From assembly GCF_003334315.1 (NCBI RefSeq), contig NZ_QOWR01000069.1: 20,033 nt of DNA; one strand, written 5' to 3'. Positions within the stretch are counted from its first letter, which is position 1; each line of letters begins with the position of its first letter. The stretch is from Escherichia coli. Its GTDB lineage: Bacteria > Pseudomonadota > Gammaproteobacteria > Enterobacterales > Enterobacteriaceae. The notes under the pieces are model-generated. The model had not been told where the DNA came from. It searched no databases and saw nothing but the letters and a program-made list of their open reading frames with translations. The position numbers and the translations under genes were made by a program. Shown piece after piece: positions 9,030 through 20,033 of the stretch.

Positions 9030-9176
9030 GATTCGCCTGAACATGCCCTTTTTTCGTAAGTAAGCAACATAAGCTGTCACGTTTTGTGATGGCTATTAGA
9101 AATTCCTATGCAACAACTGAAAAAAAATTACAAAAAGTGCTTTCTGAACTGAACAAAAAAGAGTAAAGTTAGTCGC

Positions 9177-9285
9177 GTAGGGTACAGAGGTAAGATGTTC
9201 TATCTTTCAGACCTTTTACTTCACGTAATCGGATTTGGCTGAATATTTTAGCCGCCCCAGTCAGTAATGACTGGGGCGTTTTTTA
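9177..9285 (+). ncRNA. spf: Spot 42 small regulatory RNA
   Basis: Sequence gtagggtacagaggtaagatgttctatctttcagacc... ending in the terminator hairpin ccccagtcagtaatgactgggg plus T-run, recognised as Spot 42; -10-like taaagt at 9164-9169. Confidence 0.9.
9195..9242 (+). CDS. spfP: 15-aa small protein encoded within Spot 42 (SpfP-like), MFYLSDLLLHVIGFG
   Basis: ATG at 9195 preceded by AGAGG; 15 sense codons then TGA, translated by hand. A dual-function Spot 42 peptide has been reported. Confidence 0.5.
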   Translation: MFYLSDLLLHVIGFG

Positions 9286-10313: not shown

Positions 10314-10556
10314 ATAGAGCGAGGACGCTAACAGGAACAATGACTCAGGATGAGGGTCAGGAGCGCCAGGAGGCGAAGACAGAGGATTGTCAGGAAGACA
10401 AACGTCCGGAGACGTAATTAAACGGAAATGGAATCAACACGGATTGTTCTGGCTAATGGAAAAACAGGGTGTGTTGGCGGCCTGCAAGGATTGTAAGACC
10501 CGTTAAGGGTTATGAGTCAGGAAAAAAGGCGACAGATTACTCTGTCGCCTTTTTTC
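10314..10556 (+). ncRNA. csrC: CsrC, CsrA-sequestering sRNA
   Basis: About 243 nt with 14 GGA triplets, mostly as AGGA/CAGGA, far above chance; -10-like taaagt at 10301-10306; ends in terminator aaaaaaggcgacag...ctgtcgcctttttt; sits between engB and yihI. 5' end approximate. Confidence 0.85.
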
Positions 10557-10624
10557 TTTGCTTGCTTTCTGTTAGATTCCGCCGCAAATCTATACTGAAT
10601 AAAACGGCTAAAAGACGAACCATT

Positions 10625-12739: not shown

Positions 12740-12760
12740 CAATGTGCTGAGAACAAGATT

Positions 12761-12797
12761 GCCTGATGCGGCGCTGGTCGCGTCTTATCAGGCCTAC
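12761..12797. repeat. REP element
   Basis: gcctgatgcggcgctggtcgcgtcttatcaggcctac, a classic REP palindrome shape. Confidence 0.7.
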
Positions 12798-12830
12798 GAC
12801 TTTCTCCGCATCCGGCATAAACAACGAGCT

Positions 12831-12941
12831 TCAGCTAAACAGCCCAATCATCGCGGCACACAGCACGGCAGCAACGGCAGTTTGCGGTGTGTGGCTGTCA
12901 ACTGCGCCACTCGATACCAGATTAATTATTGATTCCAGCAT
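12831..12941 (-). CDS. yshB: 36-aa small protein (MLESIINLVSSGAVDSHTPQTAVAAVLCAAMIGLFS), YshB-like
   Basis: Hand translation of the minus strand; GGGGAGAG SD 5 nt upstream of the ATG; length and position between hemN and glnG match what I recall for yshB. Below the ORF-track cutoff. Confidence 0.6.
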   Translation of the reverse strand: MLESIINLVSSGAVDSHTPQTAVAAVLCAAMIGLFS

Positions 12942-12994
12942 AATGACTCTCCCCGTTTTCCGGGCAAGATCATACTGAACTTATCGGAACAGTA

Positions 12995-13021
12995 AAGCGC
13001 AAAATACCAGCAATTTGCGCT
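12995..13021 (-). terminator. Putative terminator downstream of glnG
   Basis: Inverted repeat aagcgcaaa / tttgcgct with about 10-nt loop, 32 bp downstream of the glnG stop; followed on the minus strand by a short T-rich stretch. Confidence 0.35.
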
Positions 13022-13052
13022 CAATAATCAATCTTTACACACAAGCCGTGAA

Positions 13053-14462
13053 TCACTCCATCCCCAGCTCTTTTAACTTACGCGTCAGAGTGTTGCGGCC
13101 CCAGCCGAGTAGCCGCGCCGCTTCCTGTTTATGCCCCTGCGTATGTCGCAACGCGGTCGTCAGTAACGTCCGCTCCAGCTCTGGCTGCGCTTCGGAAAGC
13201 AGATTTTGATGACCGGAACGTAGCGCTCTGTCTGCCCACTGCGCAAGAAGCGTCGCCCAACTGTCCGGTTGCATTTGCGAAGTACTCTCCGCAACCGTTG
13301 ATTCAAACAGTTCGCCAGGCAAATCCTGAATCAACACTTCCTGTCCGGCAGCCATTACCGTTAGCCAGCGGCAGGTGTTTTCCAGCTGGCGCACGTTGCC
13401 TGGCCACGCCAGACGCGTCAACGCGGCTTCGGTTTCCGGATGCAGCAACTTCGCTTCTACGCCCAGTTCTCGCGCGGCAACCTGTAAAAAATGGCGCGCC
13501 AGGCGGGGAATATCTTCCCGACGCTCACGCAGCGGCGGCAGATGAACGCGGATAACGTTCAGGCGGTGGAACAGATCCTCACGGAACTTACCTTCCTGCA
13601 CCCGCTGTTCGAGATTCTGGTGAGTGGCAGCGATAATCCGCACATCCACTTTCACCGGCGCATAGCCGCCAACGCGGTAAAACTGGCCGTCTGCCAGCAC
13701 GCGCAGCAAACGCGTCTGCACATCCAGCGGCATATCGCCAATTTCATCGAGAAATAATGTACCGCCATCAGCCTGTTCAAAACGCCCCTGACGAATGGTA
13801 TTCGCGCCGGTAAACGCGCCTTTCTCGTGACCAAACAGTTCTGATTCGATCAAATCCTTCGGGATAGCCGCCATATTCAGAGCGATAAATGGCGCTTTGG
13901 CTCGCGGACTGTGGCGATGCAGGGCATGAGCGACCAGTTCTTTACCGGTGCCGGATTCGCCGTTAATCAGCACGCTAATAGAAGAACGCGAAAGCCGACC
14001 GATAATACGGAACACGTCCTGCATGGCTGGCGCTTCGCCGATGATATCGGTCGTTGGGCCGTTAAGCTGAACATTACGCGGCTGCTGCTGTTCCTGGTAA
14101 TGACTGATGGCGCGCTCAACCAGCGCCACGGCTTCGTCGATATCAAACGGTTTGGGCAGATAATCAAACGCCCCTTGTTGATAGGCGCTGACGGCAGCAT
14201 CCAGATCGGAATGTGCGGTCATAATGATGACCGGAAGCATCGGATGGCGCTGTTTAATCTGCTTGAGCAGCGCCAGCCCGTCCATTCCCGGCATACGGAT
14301 ATCTGAAAGCAGCACATCCGGCGTTTTGCTCGCCAGCGCCTCCAGTACCTCCGCGCCGTTCTCAAATGTCGTACAGGTTAAACCCGCTCCAGCGAGCGCA
14401 CGTTCAAGCACCCAACGGATGGAACTATCGTCATCGACTACCCAGACTATCCCTCGTTGCAT
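13053..14462 (-). CDS. glnG: Nitrogen regulation response regulator NtrC (sigma54-dependent bacterial enhancer-binding protein)
   Basis: Start at [12 protein letters not shown] (469 aa), not the ORF-track upstream Met; receiver domain with the phospho-acceptor Asp in [15 protein letters not shown]+ Walker [15 protein letters not shown] sigma54-contact motif, C-terminal HTH. Confidence 0.97.
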
Positions 14463-14473
14463 AAACGTCACCT

Positions 14474-15523
14474 TTATTTCCTGATAGGCAGGTAAACCGA
14501 GAACTCGGTATGCCCTGGCCAACTGGTAAATTCAATTTTGCCTGAATGCTGATCAATCAAATTACGAGCGATGGATAAGCCAAGCCCGGTGCCACCTTCG
14601 CGGCCGCTGACCATCGGGTAAAACAGCGTATCCTGCAAATGAGGCGGAATGCCTGGCCCGTTATCTTCCACATCAATCCGCGCCGCCAGCCGGTAGCGTT
14701 CGCCGTGTAAGGTCAGTTGAAACGCGGTGCGGGTACGCAGAATGATTTCACCGCCTTCCGGCCCCAGCGCCTGTAGCGCATTGCGCACAATATTCAGCAA
14801 GACCTGTTCAATTTGATCCGGGTCGTGCGCCAGTTCTGGCAGGCTGGGGTCGTAATCACGAATCAACCGCACGTTGTCCGGCAGTTCCATCGACACCAGC
14901 GTTACCACGCGTTCAGCCACTTTGTGAATACTTTCGGTAACGCGCGTACCGGGCAGCTGCGGCCCCAACAGACGGTCGACCAGATTTCGCAGCCGGTCCG
15001 CCTGTTCGATAATCACTTTGGTATATTCGAGTAGTGATGGGTCAGGTAACGCTTTGCTGAGCAGCTGCGCCGCGCCACGTAAACCGCCAAGCGGATTTTT
15101 AATCTCATGTGCCAGGCCGCGCACTAAATCACGGGCAGCAACCTGCTGGGCGTGCTGTAGCTGTTCCTGACTTAAGCGGCGCTGGTTATCCATCGGAGCC
15201 ATCTCCAGCAGGATCATGCCGTCCGGCATACGCTGGGCCGTCACAGAAAGGATATGCGAGCGCCCGTCGATGACCAGCGTCACTTCGTTATCGGTAAAAC
15301 CTTGCCCCGCCTCCAGACTTTCTTGCATCAGCTCGATATTTAATGAGAAGTAGCTCAACAGTTCCGGTAACGGTGTACCAAACAATTTGCGGGAGCTTTG
15401 GGCGAGCAGTTGTTGCGCGGCGGGGTTGGCGTAATGGATCGCCAGGTTGTCATCGATTAACAAAATACTGTTAATCAGCGAGTTGAGGATCTGCCCAGCA
15501 TCGGGCTGCGTGCCTGTTGCCAT
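14474..15523 (-). CDS. glnL: Nitrogen regulation sensor histidine kinase NtrB
   Basis: 349 aa; H-box HEIKNPLGG and G-box-type ATP-binding motifs (GTGLGLS); 11-bp gap to glnG. Confidence 0.97.
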
Positions 15524-15544
15524 AAAGCAGTCTCCTGAACAGGT

Positions 15545-15561
15545 TGCACCATTTTAGTGCA
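15545..15561. promoter_or_regulatory. NtrC binding site at the glnL promoter
   Basis: Dyad tgcacc-attt-tagtgca fits the NtrC consensus TGCACC-N5-GGTGCA; located about 20 bp upstream of the glnL start. Confidence 0.6.
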
Positions 15562-15610
15562 TTATAGCTTTTTACGGATAAAAAGCGCGAAGCATCAGAG
15601 AATTGACGGA

Positions 15611-15637
15611 GAAAAAAGCCCATGCAGAGATGGGCTA
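15611..15637 (-). terminator. Rho-independent terminator of glnA
   Basis: On the minus strand: hairpin agcccatctctgcatgggct followed by a T-run (6 T; plus-strand aaaaaa at 15612-15617). Confidence 0.7.
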
Positions 15638-15680
15638 CAGATAGCTGACAAACTTCACGTTGGAGAGCGACTCACCTGCT

Positions 15681-15739
15681 CCGGCCTACCACATCATCAC
15701 CGTGTAGGCCGGATAAGACGCATTTGCGTCGCATCCGGC
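15681..15739. repeat. REP element inside the glnA 3' UTR
   Basis: ccggcctac...gtaggccggataagacgcatttgcgtcgcatccggc: paired REP-type palindromes. Confidence 0.7.
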
Positions 15740-15808
15740 GTGATGTGCTTGCCACCGATCCCAGGCCTGCCAGAGACAGGCGAAAAGTTTCCACGGCAAC
15801 TAAAACAC

Positions 15809-17218
15809 TTAGACGCTGTAGTACAGCTCAAACTCTACCGGATGCGGAGTCATACGCACGCGGTCATCTTCTTCGCGACGCAGTGCGATGTACGCATCAA
15901 TTGCTTCGTCAGTGAACACGCCACCGGCTTTCAGGAACTCGCGGTCCAGATCCAGTTCGTTCAGTGCTTCTTCCAGAGAGCCTGCAACCTGTGGGATCTC
16001 TTTCGCTTCTTCTGGCGGCAGGTCATACAGGTTTTTGTCCATGGCTTCGCCCGGATGGATCTTGTTCTTGATACCATCAAGACCGGCCATCAGCAGGGCA
16101 GCAAAGCACAGGTACGGGTTAGCTGCCGGATCCGGGAAACGTACTTCGATACGACGTGCTTTCGGAGAAGAAACCACCGGAATACGGATAGACGCAGAAC
16201 GGTTACGCGCAGAGTAAGCCAGCATTACCGGTGCTTCATAGCCCGGGACCAGACGCTTATAAGAGTTGGTGGTCGGGTTTGCCAGGGCGTTAATCGCTTT
16301 AGCGTGTTTGATTACGCCGCCAATGTAGTACAGCGCCTGCTCAGACAGACCTGCGTATTTGTCGCCTGCGAACAGGTTAACGCCGTTTTTAGACAGAGAC
16401 ATGTGGCAGTGCATACCGGAGCCGTTATCACCGAACATCGGTTTTGGCATAAAGGTCGCGGTTTTACCGAAGCGGTGCGCTACGTTGTGCACAACATATT
16501 TGTAGATCTGAATTTCGTCAGCTTTTTTGGTCATGGTATTGAAGCGGGTAGCCACTTCGTTCTGACCAGCAGTCGCTACTTCGTGGTGATGGGCTTCAAC
16601 CACCAGGCCCATCTGTTCCATCACCAGACACATTTCAGAACGAATATCCTGAGCAGAGTCTACCGGCGGAACCGGGAAGTAACCGCCTTTCACTGCCGGA
16701 CGGTGACCTTTGTTACCACCTTCATATTGGGTGGAGGAGTTCCATGCGCCTTCGATATCGTCGATAGCAACGTGAGAACCGGAGATAGATGATCCGAAAC
16801 GGATGTCATCGAACAGGAAGAATTCAGGTTCTGGCCCGAACAGTACGGTGTCGGCAATGCCAGTGGAACGCAGGTAATCTTCGGCGCGCTTCGCAATGGA
16901 GCGCGGGTCACGGTCATAGCCTTGCAGGGTGCCAGGTTCAAGGATGTCGCAACGGATAATCAGGGTGGAGTCGGCGAAGAACGGGTCAATCACTGCGGTG
17001 GATGCGTCTGGCATCAGCACCATGTCGGACTCGTTAATGCCTTTCCAGCCGCCAATCGAGGAGCCGTCAAACATTTTGCCTTCTTCGAAGAATTCAGCAT
17101 TCACCTGATGAGCAGGGATAGTGACGTGCTGTTCTTTACCTTTAGTATCGGTGAAGCGCAAATCAACAAACTTCACTTCGTGCTCGTTCAGCATCGTCAG
17201 TACGTGTTCAGCGGACAT
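15809..17218 (-). CDS. glnA: Glutamine synthetase (type I)
   Basis: 469 aa; adenylylation-site Tyr in NLYDLPPEE; characteristic GS catalytic regions. Confidence 0.98.
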
Positions 17219-17301
17219 ACTTTAACTCTCCTGGATTGGTCATGGTCGTCGTGGTAACGAAATCTGCAATTATTTTGGCCGTGTCGCCGTAAAAAAGATA
17301 A

Positions 17302-17317
17302 AGCGAAATCTGTGCCA
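17302..17317 (-). promoter_or_regulatory. Sigma54 promoter glnAp2 (-24/-12 elements)
   Basis: Minus strand reads TTGGCACagattTCGCT, matching the TGGCAC-N5-TTGCA sigma54 consensus; about 85 bp upstream of the glnA ATG. Confidence 0.75.
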
Positions 17318-17350
17318 ACTTTTAAATTGCCCCTAAAAGGCGTTATCATG

Positions 17351-17439
17351 CGCACCATCGTGCAAAAGGGCTGCACCACGATGTGAATGTTGCACCAATA
17401 TAGTGCTTCAATGGAAACATTAAGCACCATGTTGGTGCA
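17351..17439 (-). promoter_or_regulatory. Cluster of NtrC enhancer binding sites upstream of glnAp2
   Basis: Repeated TGCACC/GGTGCA half-sites: tgcaccaatatagtgct (17391-17407), agcaccatgttggtgca (17423-17439), weaker copies at 17351-17388. Confidence 0.65.
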
Positions 17440-17590
17440 ATGACCTTTGGATAACCCTTTTTATGCTCCGTGAAAGCGATCACAAAGGGACTCTGCAATA
17501 CTTGTTTGCGGAGGATGTTTGTGATCCTGTTTTGTAGTGCGATTAATCCGTGTACAATAACGCGCTATTTCTAATGCCTGAGGCAAAGTT

Positions 17591-19414
17591 GTGATCGAAA
17601 AATTGCGTAATATCGCCATCATCGCGCACGTAGACCATGGTAAAACCACCCTGGTAGACAAGCTGCTCCAACAATCCGGTACGTTCGACTCTCGTGCCGA
17701 AACCCAAGAGCGCGTGATGGACTCCAACGATTTGGAGAAAGAGCGTGGGATTACCATCCTCGCGAAAAACACCGCTATCAAATGGAATGATTACCGTATC
17801 AACATCGTTGATACCCCGGGGCACGCCGACTTCGGTGGTGAAGTTGAACGTGTAATGTCCATGGTAGACTCAGTGCTGCTGGTGGTTGACGCATTTGACG
17901 GCCCGATGCCGCAAACGCGCTTCGTAACCAAAAAAGCGTTTGCTTACGGCCTGAAGCCGATTGTTGTTATCAACAAAGTTGACCGCCCTGGCGCGCGTCC
18001 TGATTGGGTTGTGGATCAGGTATTCGATCTGTTCGTTAACCTCGACGCGACCGACGAGCAGCTGGACTTCCCGATCGTTTACGCTTCTGCGCTGAACGGT
18101 ATCGCGGGTCTGGACCACGAAGATATGGCGGAAGACATGACCCCGCTGTATCAGGCGATTGTTGATCACGTTCCTGCGCCGGACGTTGACCTTGACGGTC
18201 CGTTCCAGATGCAGATTTCTCAGCTCGATTACAACAGCTATGTTGGCGTTATCGGCATTGGCCGCATCAAGCGCGGTAAAGTGAAGCCGAACCAACAGGT
18301 CACTATCATCGATAGCGAAGGCAAAACCCGCAACGCGAAAGTCGGTAAAGTGCTGGGCCACCTCGGTCTGGAACGTATCGAAACCGATCTGGCGGAAGCT
18401 GGCGATATCGTGGCGATCACGGGCCTTGGCGAACTGAACATTTCTGACACCGTTTGCGACACGCAAAACGTTGAAGCGCTGCCGGCACTCTCCGTTGATG
18501 AGCCGACCGTTTCTATGTTCTTCTGCGTTAACACCTCGCCGTTCTGCGGTAAAGAAGGTAAGTTCGTAACGTCTCGTCAGATCCTGGATCGTCTGAACAA
18601 AGAACTGGTACACAACGTTGCGCTGCGCGTAGAAGAAACCGAAGACGCCGATGCGTTCCGCGTTTCTGGTCGTGGCGAACTGCACCTGTCTGTTCTGATC
18701 GAAAACATGCGTCGTGAAGGTTTCGAACTGGCGGTATCCCGTCCGAAAGTTATCTTCCGTGAAATCGACGGTCGTAAACAAGAGCCGTATGAAAACGTGA
18801 CGCTGGACGTTGAAGAACAGCATCAGGGTTCTGTAATGCAGGCGCTGGGCGAACGTAAAGGCGACCTGAAAAACATGAATCCAGACGGTAAAGGCCGCGT
18901 ACGTCTCGACTACGTGATCCCAAGCCGTGGTCTGATTGGCTTCCGTTCTGAGTTCATGACCATGACTTCCGGTACTGGTCTGCTGTACTCCACCTTCAGC
19001 CACTACGACGACGTACGTCCGGGTGAAGTGGGTCAGCGTCAGAACGGCGTACTGATCTCTAACGGTCAGGGTAAAGCGGTCGCGTTCGCGCTGTTCGGTC
19101 TGCAGGATCGCGGTAAGCTGTTCCTCGGTCACGGTGCAGAAGTTTACGAAGGTCAGATTATCGGTATTCATAGCCGCTCTAACGACCTGACTGTAAACTG
19201 CCTGACCGGTAAGAAACTGACCAACATGCGTGCTTCCGGTACTGACGAAGCCGTTGTTCTGGTTCCGCCTATCCGCATGACTCTGGAACAAGCTCTGGAG
19301 TTCATCGATGATGACGAACTGGTAGAAGTGACCCCGACCTCTATCCGTATTCGTAAACGTCACCTGACGGAAAACGATCGTCGTCGCGCCAACCGCGCAC
19401 CGAAAGACGATTAA
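17591..19414 (+). CDS. typA: Ribosome-associated translational GTPase BipA/TypA
   Basis: 607 aa, GTG start with GAGG SD; G-domain motifs [18 protein letters not shown]; EF-G-like domain architecture. Confidence 0.97.
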
Positions 19415-19431
19415 TTTCGTTTTTTAGTCAT

Positions 19432-19464
19432 AAAAAACCTGCCAGCGATGGCAGGTTTTTTTTT
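19432..19464 (+). terminator. Rho-independent terminator of typA
   Basis: A-run, stem cctgcca / tggcagg with 4-nt loop, then nine T. Confidence 0.85.
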
Positions 19465-19630
19465 GCCTGTCGTGAGCACTCAGCAATGCGAGTATCTCCC
19501 TTATAAGTCTGTGGTTACGTCAATAGAGAGCTTTGTCACAATTATCTGCAAAGTCATACGCCGTTAATTGCTTTCTTTTTTGGCGTAAGCGTAAGATGCC
19601 TCATCTGGTTTAAACCAAAAGGATTAAACA

Positions 19631-19652
19631 ATGGCGGAGAATCAATCCACCG
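19631..19652 (+). pseudogene. 5' stub (7 codons, MAENQST) of the gene downstream of typA, interrupted by IS1; possibly the yihL equivalent
   Basis: ATG at 19631 preceded by AAGGA SD (7-nt spacer); reading frame runs straight into the IS1 left end. Host gene identity is from remembered gene order only. Confidence 0.35.
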
Positions 19653-20033
19653 GGTGATGATGCCAACTTACTGATTTAGTGTATGATGGTGTTTTTGAGG
19701 TGCTCCAGTGGCTTCTGTTTCTATCAGCTGTCCCTCCTGTTCAGCTACTGACGGGGTGGTGCGTAACGGCAAAAGCACCGCCGGACATCAGCGCTATCTC
19801 TGCTCTCACTGCCGTAAAACATGGCAACTGCAGTTCACTTACACCGCTTCTCAACCCGGTACGCACCAGAAAATCATTGATATGGCCATGAATGGCGTTG
19901 GATGCCGGGCAACCGCCCGCATTATGGGCGTTGGCCTCAACACGATTTTCCGCCATTTAAAAAACTCAGGCCGCAGTCGGTAACCTCGCGCATACAGCCG
20001 GGCAGTGACGTCATCGTCTGCGCGGAAATGGAC
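19653..20033 (+). mobile_element. IS1 insertion sequence, left end and first 381 bp (truncated by window end)
   Basis: Left inverted repeat ggtgatgatgccaacttactgat; insA lies at element positions 56-331 exactly as in IS1; A6C frameshift motif ttaaaaaac at 19957-19965. Confidence 0.92.
19708..19983 (+). CDS. insA: IS1 InsA (transposition inhibitor / N-terminal part of InsAB' transposase)
   Basis: 91 aa, GTG start; zinc-finger-like CPSC...CSHC motif and HTH region ([21 protein letters not shown]...). Confidence 0.92.

Follow-up and report, generated by a model that had tools for sequence, protein, structure and literature searches.

The REP-bearing 3' untranslated region of glnA in a non-K-12 Escherichia coli segment carries the sequence of the K-12 small RNA GlnZ

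Introduction

Is the 3' end of the glnA transcript a passive end, or does it give rise to a regulatory RNA? The question is raised by an Escherichia coli chromosomal segment of 20,033 nt (the window), which contains the genes polA, spf, csrC, hemN, glnG, glnL, glnA and bipA, and in which a REP element lies between the glnA stop codon and an intrinsic terminator. REP hairpins are stabilisers of mRNA, and the classical REP consensus, GCCGGATG..CTTATCCGGCCTAC, is an imperfect palindrome of about 35 nt. An initial annotation proposed that a GlnZ-type small RNA derives from this 3' untranslated region (UTR), and asked whether the form containing REP is processed and functional.

We conclude with near certainty that 15612-15805, on the minus strand, is the known K-12 GlnZ: an RNA that contains REP, is cut from the glnA mRNA and represses sucA, glnP and aceE through its seed. 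GlnZ is already characterised at this locus, and nothing in this reading is new. The biology is important, as it links nitrogen assimilation to carbon flux, yet it is already in print for the identical sequence. The present analysis establishes the identity and anatomy of the element, the conservation of its seed and terminator, its pairing in silico and the intact sequence of its promoter.

Results

Identity of the element

Read on the minus strand, 15805..15612 is identical at 194 of 194 positions to the MG1655 ncRNA glnZ (b4836, annotated as 'small regulatory RNA GlnZ', NC_000913.3 4056428..4056621). The element is placed between glnA and glnL, on the same strand as glnA and ahead of glnLG; its features are collected in Table 1. 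With this match, and with the published seed and terminator present, the proposal of a GlnZ-type sRNA from the glnA 3' UTR is borne out. Alignment with the described GlnZ, the check that the initial annotation had suggested, gives an identical seed, so that the contrary outcome it had named, a lack of seed similarity, did not occur. We found no sequence feature that speaks against the GlnZ reading.

Table 1 Features of the glnA-glnL region in the window
Feature	Position	Strand	Basis and remarks
GlnZ sRNA, 194-nt major form (GlnZ194), K-12 type / class III	15612..15805	-	Identity to b4836; 5' end and size from RefSeq annotation and Walling et al.
Complete glnA 3' UTR, 197 nt	15808..15612	-	First base past TAA to last U of the terminator tract
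Seed core GUUGCCGUGGAA	15789..15800	-	Exact match; functional seed over about 15804..15786
Hairpin 1 GCCUGUCUCUGGCAGGC, with U-rich single strand ahead of it	15765..15781	-	Minimum-energy fold; 7 pairs, 100% paired in 4 taxa
Long, mostly double-stranded stem-loop containing REP, 123 nt	15639..15761	-	Minimum-energy and centroid folds
REP element GCCGGAUGCGACGCAAAUGCGUCUUAUCCGGCCUAC, 36 nt	15704..15739	-	Inverted repeat, motif enrichment, multicopy, sub-threshold naRNA4 match
Inverted REP-tail copy (GUAGGCCGGA)	15680..15689	-	Pairs with the CCGGCCUAC end of REP; apex of the long stem
Rho-independent terminator, stem-loop AGCCCAUCUCUGCAUGGGCU and U tract	15612..15636	-	Terminator scan; 3' end of both glnA mRNA and GlnZ
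glnA (glutamine synthetase), parent mRNA of GlnZ	15809..17218	-	469-aa ORF; annotated glnA in MG1655 and other genomes
glnL	14474-15523	-	Start at 15523
Sigma-54 promoter (TGGCAC-N5-TCGCT)	17302..17317	-	Read from sequence

The window does not come from MG1655, as is evident from 64 substitutions in 12760-19652 and an indel near 12770. Its flanks are 99.1-99.8% identical to MG1655, and the best matches are strains such as HS30-1. glnA carries 6 substitutions relative to MG1655, and both 15524-15808 and the promoter region (17219-17590) are free of differences.

A scan with Rfam 15 matched no GlnZ family, either at gathering threshold over the whole window or at E<=10 over 15450-15950. The best match in 15450-15950 was the REP-derived naRNA4, below threshold with 30 bits against a gathering score of 59.5; the others were noise. 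Since Rfam 15 contains no GlnZ model, this silence stems from the library and does not count against the RNA. In RefSeq, glnZ is annotated in MG1655, and in the other genomes listed PGAP places only glnA or no feature under the GlnZ region; the glnZ label is consequently missing from about 1,570 complete genomes whose allele is the same or nearly so.

Several other features of the window were recorded in passing. As many as 38 of the 64 substitutions fall in glnG (13053-14462; about 2.7%), while divergence from MG1655 is about 0.4-0.6% in glnL, glnA and bipA and nil in the intergenic regions; by its distribution, the glnG cluster looks like a recombination patch limited to ntrC. The MG1655 match ends after 19652, where K-12 has the bipA-yihL spacer: 19653-20033 is IS1-like sequence instead, and the ORF at 19708-19983 presumably corresponds to IS1 InsA, which it resembles. 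BLAST with the whole window returns multicopy matches, plasmids among them. At 12760-12800, downstream of hemN, there is a REP (GCCTGATGCGGCGCTGGTCGCGTCTTATCAGGCCTAC), and about 80 nt of MG1655 (13496-13577 of its aligned locus) are absent there, probably through REP/BIME copy-number variation. Rfam matches at gathering level are Spot 42 (9167-9285), CsrC (10314-10567), STnc370 at the bipA terminator (19399-19467) and the ES222 sRNA (17402-17509, plus strand), the last opposite to glnA and overlapping the NtrC-site region upstream of glnAp2.

Anatomy of the 3' UTR

The distance of about 200 nt given initially from the glnA stop to its intrinsic terminator agrees with the measured UTR, which ends in the terminator's U tract. 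The stop codon TAA occupies 15811-15809 (minus strand), and 172 nt lie between it and the terminator stem. This stem, at 15636..15617 (AGCCCATCTCTGCATGGGCT), is followed by TTTTTCTCCG, with the T tract ending at 15612. It is the one terminator-like site returned by a terminator scan of 15400-15950, on the minus strand, where shuffles lead one to expect 0.6. The conserved GlnZ terminator motif AGCCCAUC..GAUGGGCUUUUUU is present, and the terminator is invariant among the E. coli allele types.

No sigma-70 promoter of GlnZ's own was found by a consensus scan of 15400-15950. An own promoter was thus rejected as the main source of the RNA, also because the activity of a PglnZ-lacZ fusion is minimal (Walling et al., bioRxiv 10.1101/2022.04.01.486790). 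On the opposite strand, a 411-aa ORF (15557-16792) is the antisense shadow of glnA. Beyond the terminator, upstream of glnL, a TATAAT at 15566..15561 (minus strand) overlaps by one base a palindrome, TGCACTAAAATGGTGCA, at 15561..15545; we take these two elements (15545-15566) to be the glnL promoter with its NtrC operator. Past the GlnZ terminator, loci of Citrobacter, Salmonella diarizonae and Erwinia show the TATAATGCAC..GTGCA arrangement as well.

Much of the UTR had been ascribed to a REP palindrome at 15681-15739. The palindrome is real, and 'much' is generous: it covers 59 of 197 nt (30%). REP proper accounts for 36 nt of it, and the remainder is a 14-nt spacer and a 10-nt inverted tail. 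On the RNA strand, 15739..15704 reads GCCGGATGCGACGCAAATGCGTCTTATCCGGCCTAC and fits the classical REP consensus; its arms, 15708-15722 and 15725-15739, are 15 nt long and 87% complementary. A second inverted repeat has 10-nt arms, 15680-15689 and 15704-15713, that are 100% complementary, 15689..15680 being an inverted copy of the REP tail GGCCTAC. Allowing <=2 mismatches, the window contains 4 occurrences of the REP-tail motif CTTATCCGGCCTAC, where 0.06 are expected; other tails lie at 163-176 and 12784-12797. All 5,426 complete E. coli genomes contain dispersed copies of the 36-mer, nearly all of them at least 40 (median at least 40, lowest value 21), and the copy studied here sits outside coding sequence, in the 3' UTR. 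We do not call it a BIME, for which at least two full REPs in alternating orientation are needed: here there is one full REP, with an inverted tail fragment of 10-14 nt for a second arm.

Such an element invites a plainer reading of the locus, in which the REP and terminator hairpins do no more than block 3'-to-5' exonucleases and set the readthrough into glnLG, and any fragments are decay intermediates. A stabilising role fits the known behaviour of REP hairpins. REP itself is an ordinary multicopy element, and its absence from about 70% of E. coli alleles marks it as dispensable. Deletion of the terminator slightly lowers GlnA, from which it follows that the terminator stabilises glnA mRNA (Miyakoshi et al., PMC9731577). 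Against a passive end, deletion or swap of the UTR left GlnA and NtrC levels unchanged (PMC9731577), and further evidence comes from the seed, below.

Predicted fold of the RNA

The 194-nt GlnZ has a predicted fold of -81 kcal/mol, with z = -3.8 relative to dinucleotide shuffles. From the 5' end it consists of a free seed, a 7-bp hairpin 1, the 123-nt stem bearing REP, and the terminator. The mean unpaired probability of the seed is 0.74, against 0.37 for the entire RNA.

At the apex of the long stem, the REP tail is paired to its own inverted fragment in the minimum-energy fold. Forcing a REP-internal hairpin costs 4.8 kcal/mol (-76.2 vs -81.0), which accords with the alternative structures that Walling et al. 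mention. The helix at the base of the stem has 13 pairs, 100% of them paired in 4 taxa, and 7 pairs are changed on one side only; double compensation does not occur in this helix among the 4 taxa. These one-sided changes preserve pairing, and by comparison of the four sequences they are suggestive only of a selected long stem.

Published experiments on the identical sequence

The expression, processing, Hfq dependence and target repression of GlnZ are known from the literature on the K-12 sequence. According to Walling et al. (bioRxiv 10.1101/2022.04.01.486790), GlnZ occurs in sizes of about 213, 194, 174 and 150 nt, the last three of which were detected by northern blotting; the 194-nt form is dominant and induced by nitrogen starvation. 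GlnZ is absent from ntrC and PglnA deletion strains; this loss, together with the negligible activity of an internal promoter fusion, establishes that GlnZ is processed from the glnA mRNA (bioRxiv 10.1101/2022.04.01.486790). Probing in vitro revealed a long double-stranded region, matching REP, that is extensively cut by RNase III. GlnZ194 represses glnP and sucA by direct pairing, as compensatory mutants attest. GlnZ174, which lacks the seed, does not repress SucA, and an RNase E cut near hairpin 1 was proposed to generate it (all bioRxiv 10.1101/2022.04.01.486790). In the window, the 5' end of GlnZ174 would fall at about 15785.

Miyakoshi et al. (eLife, PMC9731577) distinguished three UTR types, '197 nt K-12', '85 nt O157' and '230 nt O111'. 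They described Hfq dependence, placed an RNase E site on either side of the stop codon, and found that action requires release from the mRNA (PMC9731577). The surroundings of the stop codon in the window are the K-12 sequence that was mutated in the published RNase E experiments. Repression by GlnZ was shown for sucA and for aceE; in the case of aceE, the compensatory pair was G12C / C-99G (PMC9731577). RIL-seq in nitrogen-starved cells has recovered the GlnZ regulon and added nac. The REP-containing form is thus processed and functional, having been shown to be so experimentally for the identical sequence (bioRxiv 10.1101/2022.04.01.486790; PMC9731577).

Conservation and pairing of the seed

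The final six codons of glnA, with TAA, were sought in a single genome of each species. In the 120 gammaproteobacterial loci obtained, we searched the 400 nt downstream for the seed core (GTTGCCGTGGAA, at <=1 mismatch) and for the terminator (AGCCCATC..GATGGGCTTTTT). Both are found in 75 of the 120 loci, which include Citrobacter, Enterobacter, Pantoea, Erwinia, Pectobacterium, Serratia and Yersinia, and neither in 32; in the non-Enterobacterales loci listed, from Rheinheimera, Alkalimonas, Arsukibacterium, Idiomarina and Colwellia, neither seed nor terminator is found. The seed stops 4-7 nt short of the terminator stem in 72 of the 75 loci. The scan reproduces the published claim that seed and terminator are conserved within an otherwise unconserved UTR.

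The first 25 nt of GlnZ were paired by RNAduplex with the sdhB-sucA, glnH-glnP and pdhR-aceE intergenic regions of MG1655, and compared with 500 dinucleotide-shuffled seeds. The duplex with sucA (-20.9 kcal/mol, at -54..-27) is equalled or bettered by 14 of the 500 shuffled seeds. That with glnP (-18.4 kcal/mol, at -22..-11) lies just 5' of the Shine-Dalgarno sequence, as published, and is equalled or bettered by 18/500; that with aceE (-22.3 kcal/mol) by 4/500. In the aceE duplex, G12 of the UTR stands opposite C-99: it is the compensatory pair validated by Miyakoshi et al. (PMC9731577). The sites that face the seed are UCCACGGCGA in sdhB-sucA, CCACGGUAAC in glnH-glnP and GCGGCAACUAAA in pdhR-aceE. 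The seed thus pairs better than 96-99% of shuffled seeds with these regions, which were taken from K-12, sucA, glnP and aceE lying outside the window. At about the 1-4% level against shuffled seeds, the duplex energies alone are weak evidence.

A passive mRNA end would not be expected to keep a 12-nt seed past glnA in 75 species, within a UTR that is otherwise not conserved. The complementarity of the seed to three target sites speaks against a passive end too. Compensatory mutations and deletion phenotypes published for the identical sequence count against such an end as well (bioRxiv 10.1101/2022.04.01.486790; PMC9731577). As the sole explanation, a passive end is already refuted by those compensatory mutations, and we regard it as highly improbable. 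Stabilisation is compatible with sRNA function, and the terminator can provide it alongside as a second role. There is practically no chance that the product of the locus is instead a small protein encoded by the 40-aa GTG ORF that the RNA strand does contain (15794..15672, GlnZ strand), which we rejected: it is without a Shine-Dalgarno sequence, its GTG falls inside the seed and most of it runs through the REP stem, single-base indels shift its frame in E. albertii, where a stop follows after 32 codons, and the O157 and O111 alleles do not have it, the sequence being missing there.

Allele types of the GlnZ region

A 301-nt UTR query, with the K-12 type defined as a match over >=80% of its length, was compared with 5,426 complete E. 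coli genomes. It matches all of them (5,426/5,426), and 1,571 (29%) are of the K-12 type. The O111-type UTR is complete in 993 genomes, and the remaining ~2,860 are assigned to the O157 type by subtraction. The three types have identical glnA ends, terminators and glnL promoter regions. All contain the seed UUUAGUUGCCGUGGAAA, at differing positions; MAFFT alignment of the three UTR types misplaces it for that reason, and it was compared by motif search. The seed core is identical in the K-12, O157 and O111 types.

Among the 40 matches listed, the weakest is NZ_CP030939.1 (E. coli AMSHJX01), where only the last 77 nt of the query, on the glnL promoter side, match. Upstream, where glnA and GlnZ would be expected, stands a truncated clsB pseudogene, and the annotation gives glnL as frameshifted. 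The locus may be a rearrangement or stem from a low-quality assembly.

Of the 75 seed-bearing loci, 3 are organised as class III: the seed adjoins the stop codon, and hairpin 1 and then a long insert separate it from the terminator. E. albertii has nearly the same sequence as the window, with REP. In S. enterica subsp. diarizonae the gap is 146 nt and holds a different REP-like palindrome (GGGCCTAC..GTAGGCCC), and in Citrobacter sp. FP75 it is 81 nt, with only a short CGCCATCCGGCA piece at the apex. These three and the K-12 type have in common hairpin 1 and the basal part of the long stem, and each homologue, folded on its own, takes the same layout. The base reads GAUCGrUGGCrA / GUUUGyCAG..AUC and lies just ahead of the terminator. 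Miyakoshi et al. (PMC9731577) state that diarizonae and salamae differ from other Salmonella.

It is conceivable, if rather unlikely, that class III is more than a K-12-lineage UTR into which a REP was inserted, and is an older alternative allele of the glnA 3' UTR, scattered across genera, with the apex as a variable slot for REP, a REP-like palindrome or about 20 nt. That the backbone would be older than the REP in its apical slot is hinted at by four sequences: it is a lead, not a result. If true, the conserved long stem rather than REP would be the functional module, for example an element of RNase III or stability control, and the patchy distribution of class III would point to recombination of sRNA alleles between species.

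Promoter of the parent transcript

The sigma-54 promoter upstream of glnA is preceded by TGCACC-type sites at about 17360-17440. We take the promoter to be glnAp2 and the sites to be those of NtrC. The entire glnA-bipA intergenic region, with the promoter and the candidate NtrC sites, is identical to that of MG1655.

Discussion

The following course of events would account for GlnZ at this locus. Under nitrogen limitation, NtrC and sigma-54 would activate glnAp2, driving both glnA and GlnZ, and transcription through glnA would end at the intrinsic terminator (15636-15612). Cuts by RNase E on both sides of the glnA stop codon would then release the 194-nt RNA, with the seed (UUUUAGUUGCCGUGGAAAC) as its first ~20 nt. 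With Hfq, the seed would pair to the 5' untranslated regions of sucA (E1 of 2-oxoglutarate dehydrogenase), glnP (glutamine ABC transporter) and aceE (E1 of pyruvate dehydrogenase) and repress them. Such repression would steer 2-oxoglutarate to glutamate and glutamine synthesis and limit glutamine import, while the same transcript makes glutamine synthetase.

The REP and its flanks, in this mechanism, would form one long stem that leaves the seed single-stranded and near the terminator and Hfq-binding end, and that would serve as a substrate of RNase III. A further cleavage, within the U-rich segment that precedes hairpin 1, would remove the seed and yield the inactive 174-nt form. We infer that the strain of the window, which is not K-12, probably behaves as K-12 does; sucA, glnP, aceE, hfq and rne lie outside the window.

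The meaning of GlnZ is that the transcript of glutamine synthetase also yields an sRNA throttling 2-oxoglutarate and pyruvate dehydrogenases and glutamine import. The question left by the initial annotation is closed: the form containing REP is the K-12 form that has been studied, and it is functional, as published for the identical sequence.

Among known systems, the nearest is K-12 GlnZ itself (b4836), termed class III by Walling et al. and K-12 type by Miyakoshi et al. The window has the same 194-nt sequence, 197-nt UTR, seed at the stop codon, REP in a long stem and terminator, and the flanking glnL and glnA promoter regions are identical too; only the host differs. The O157-type GlnZ (EsrF, class I, 85-nt UTR) and the O111 type (230-nt) share the locus, the seed, the terminator and the glnL promoter region, and published tests give them the same targets as the K-12 type. 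They differ in having the seed 4-7 nt upstream of the terminator, no REP and a different hairpin, CCCGGCG..CGCCGGG, after the stop codon; the O111 type is further extended by an insertion, of 98 nt according to Miyakoshi et al. (PMC9731577).

GlnZ of Salmonella enterica (class II, 185-nt UTR) is likewise released by RNase E and dependent on Hfq, and with the same seed core it represses sucA and glnP (PMC9731577). In contrast to the window, its seed is beside the terminator and far from the stop codon, and it has no REP. An extra G by the seed has cost it aceE as a target and gained it deoD (PMC9731577).

More distantly, CpxQ, SdhX, NarS and SroC follow the same principle: the promoter of the parent gene is used, and RNase E releases an Hfq-binding fragment that ends at the mRNA terminator (PMC9731577). 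In these, too, the sRNA and the protein from the parent mRNA serve one pathway, whereas loci, seeds and targets differ from those of GlnZ. An embedded REP is unusual among 3' UTR sRNAs. One is found in the MgrR of E. fergusonii, in which regulation of a known MgrR target is lost (Walling et al., bioRxiv 10.1101/2022.04.01.486790).
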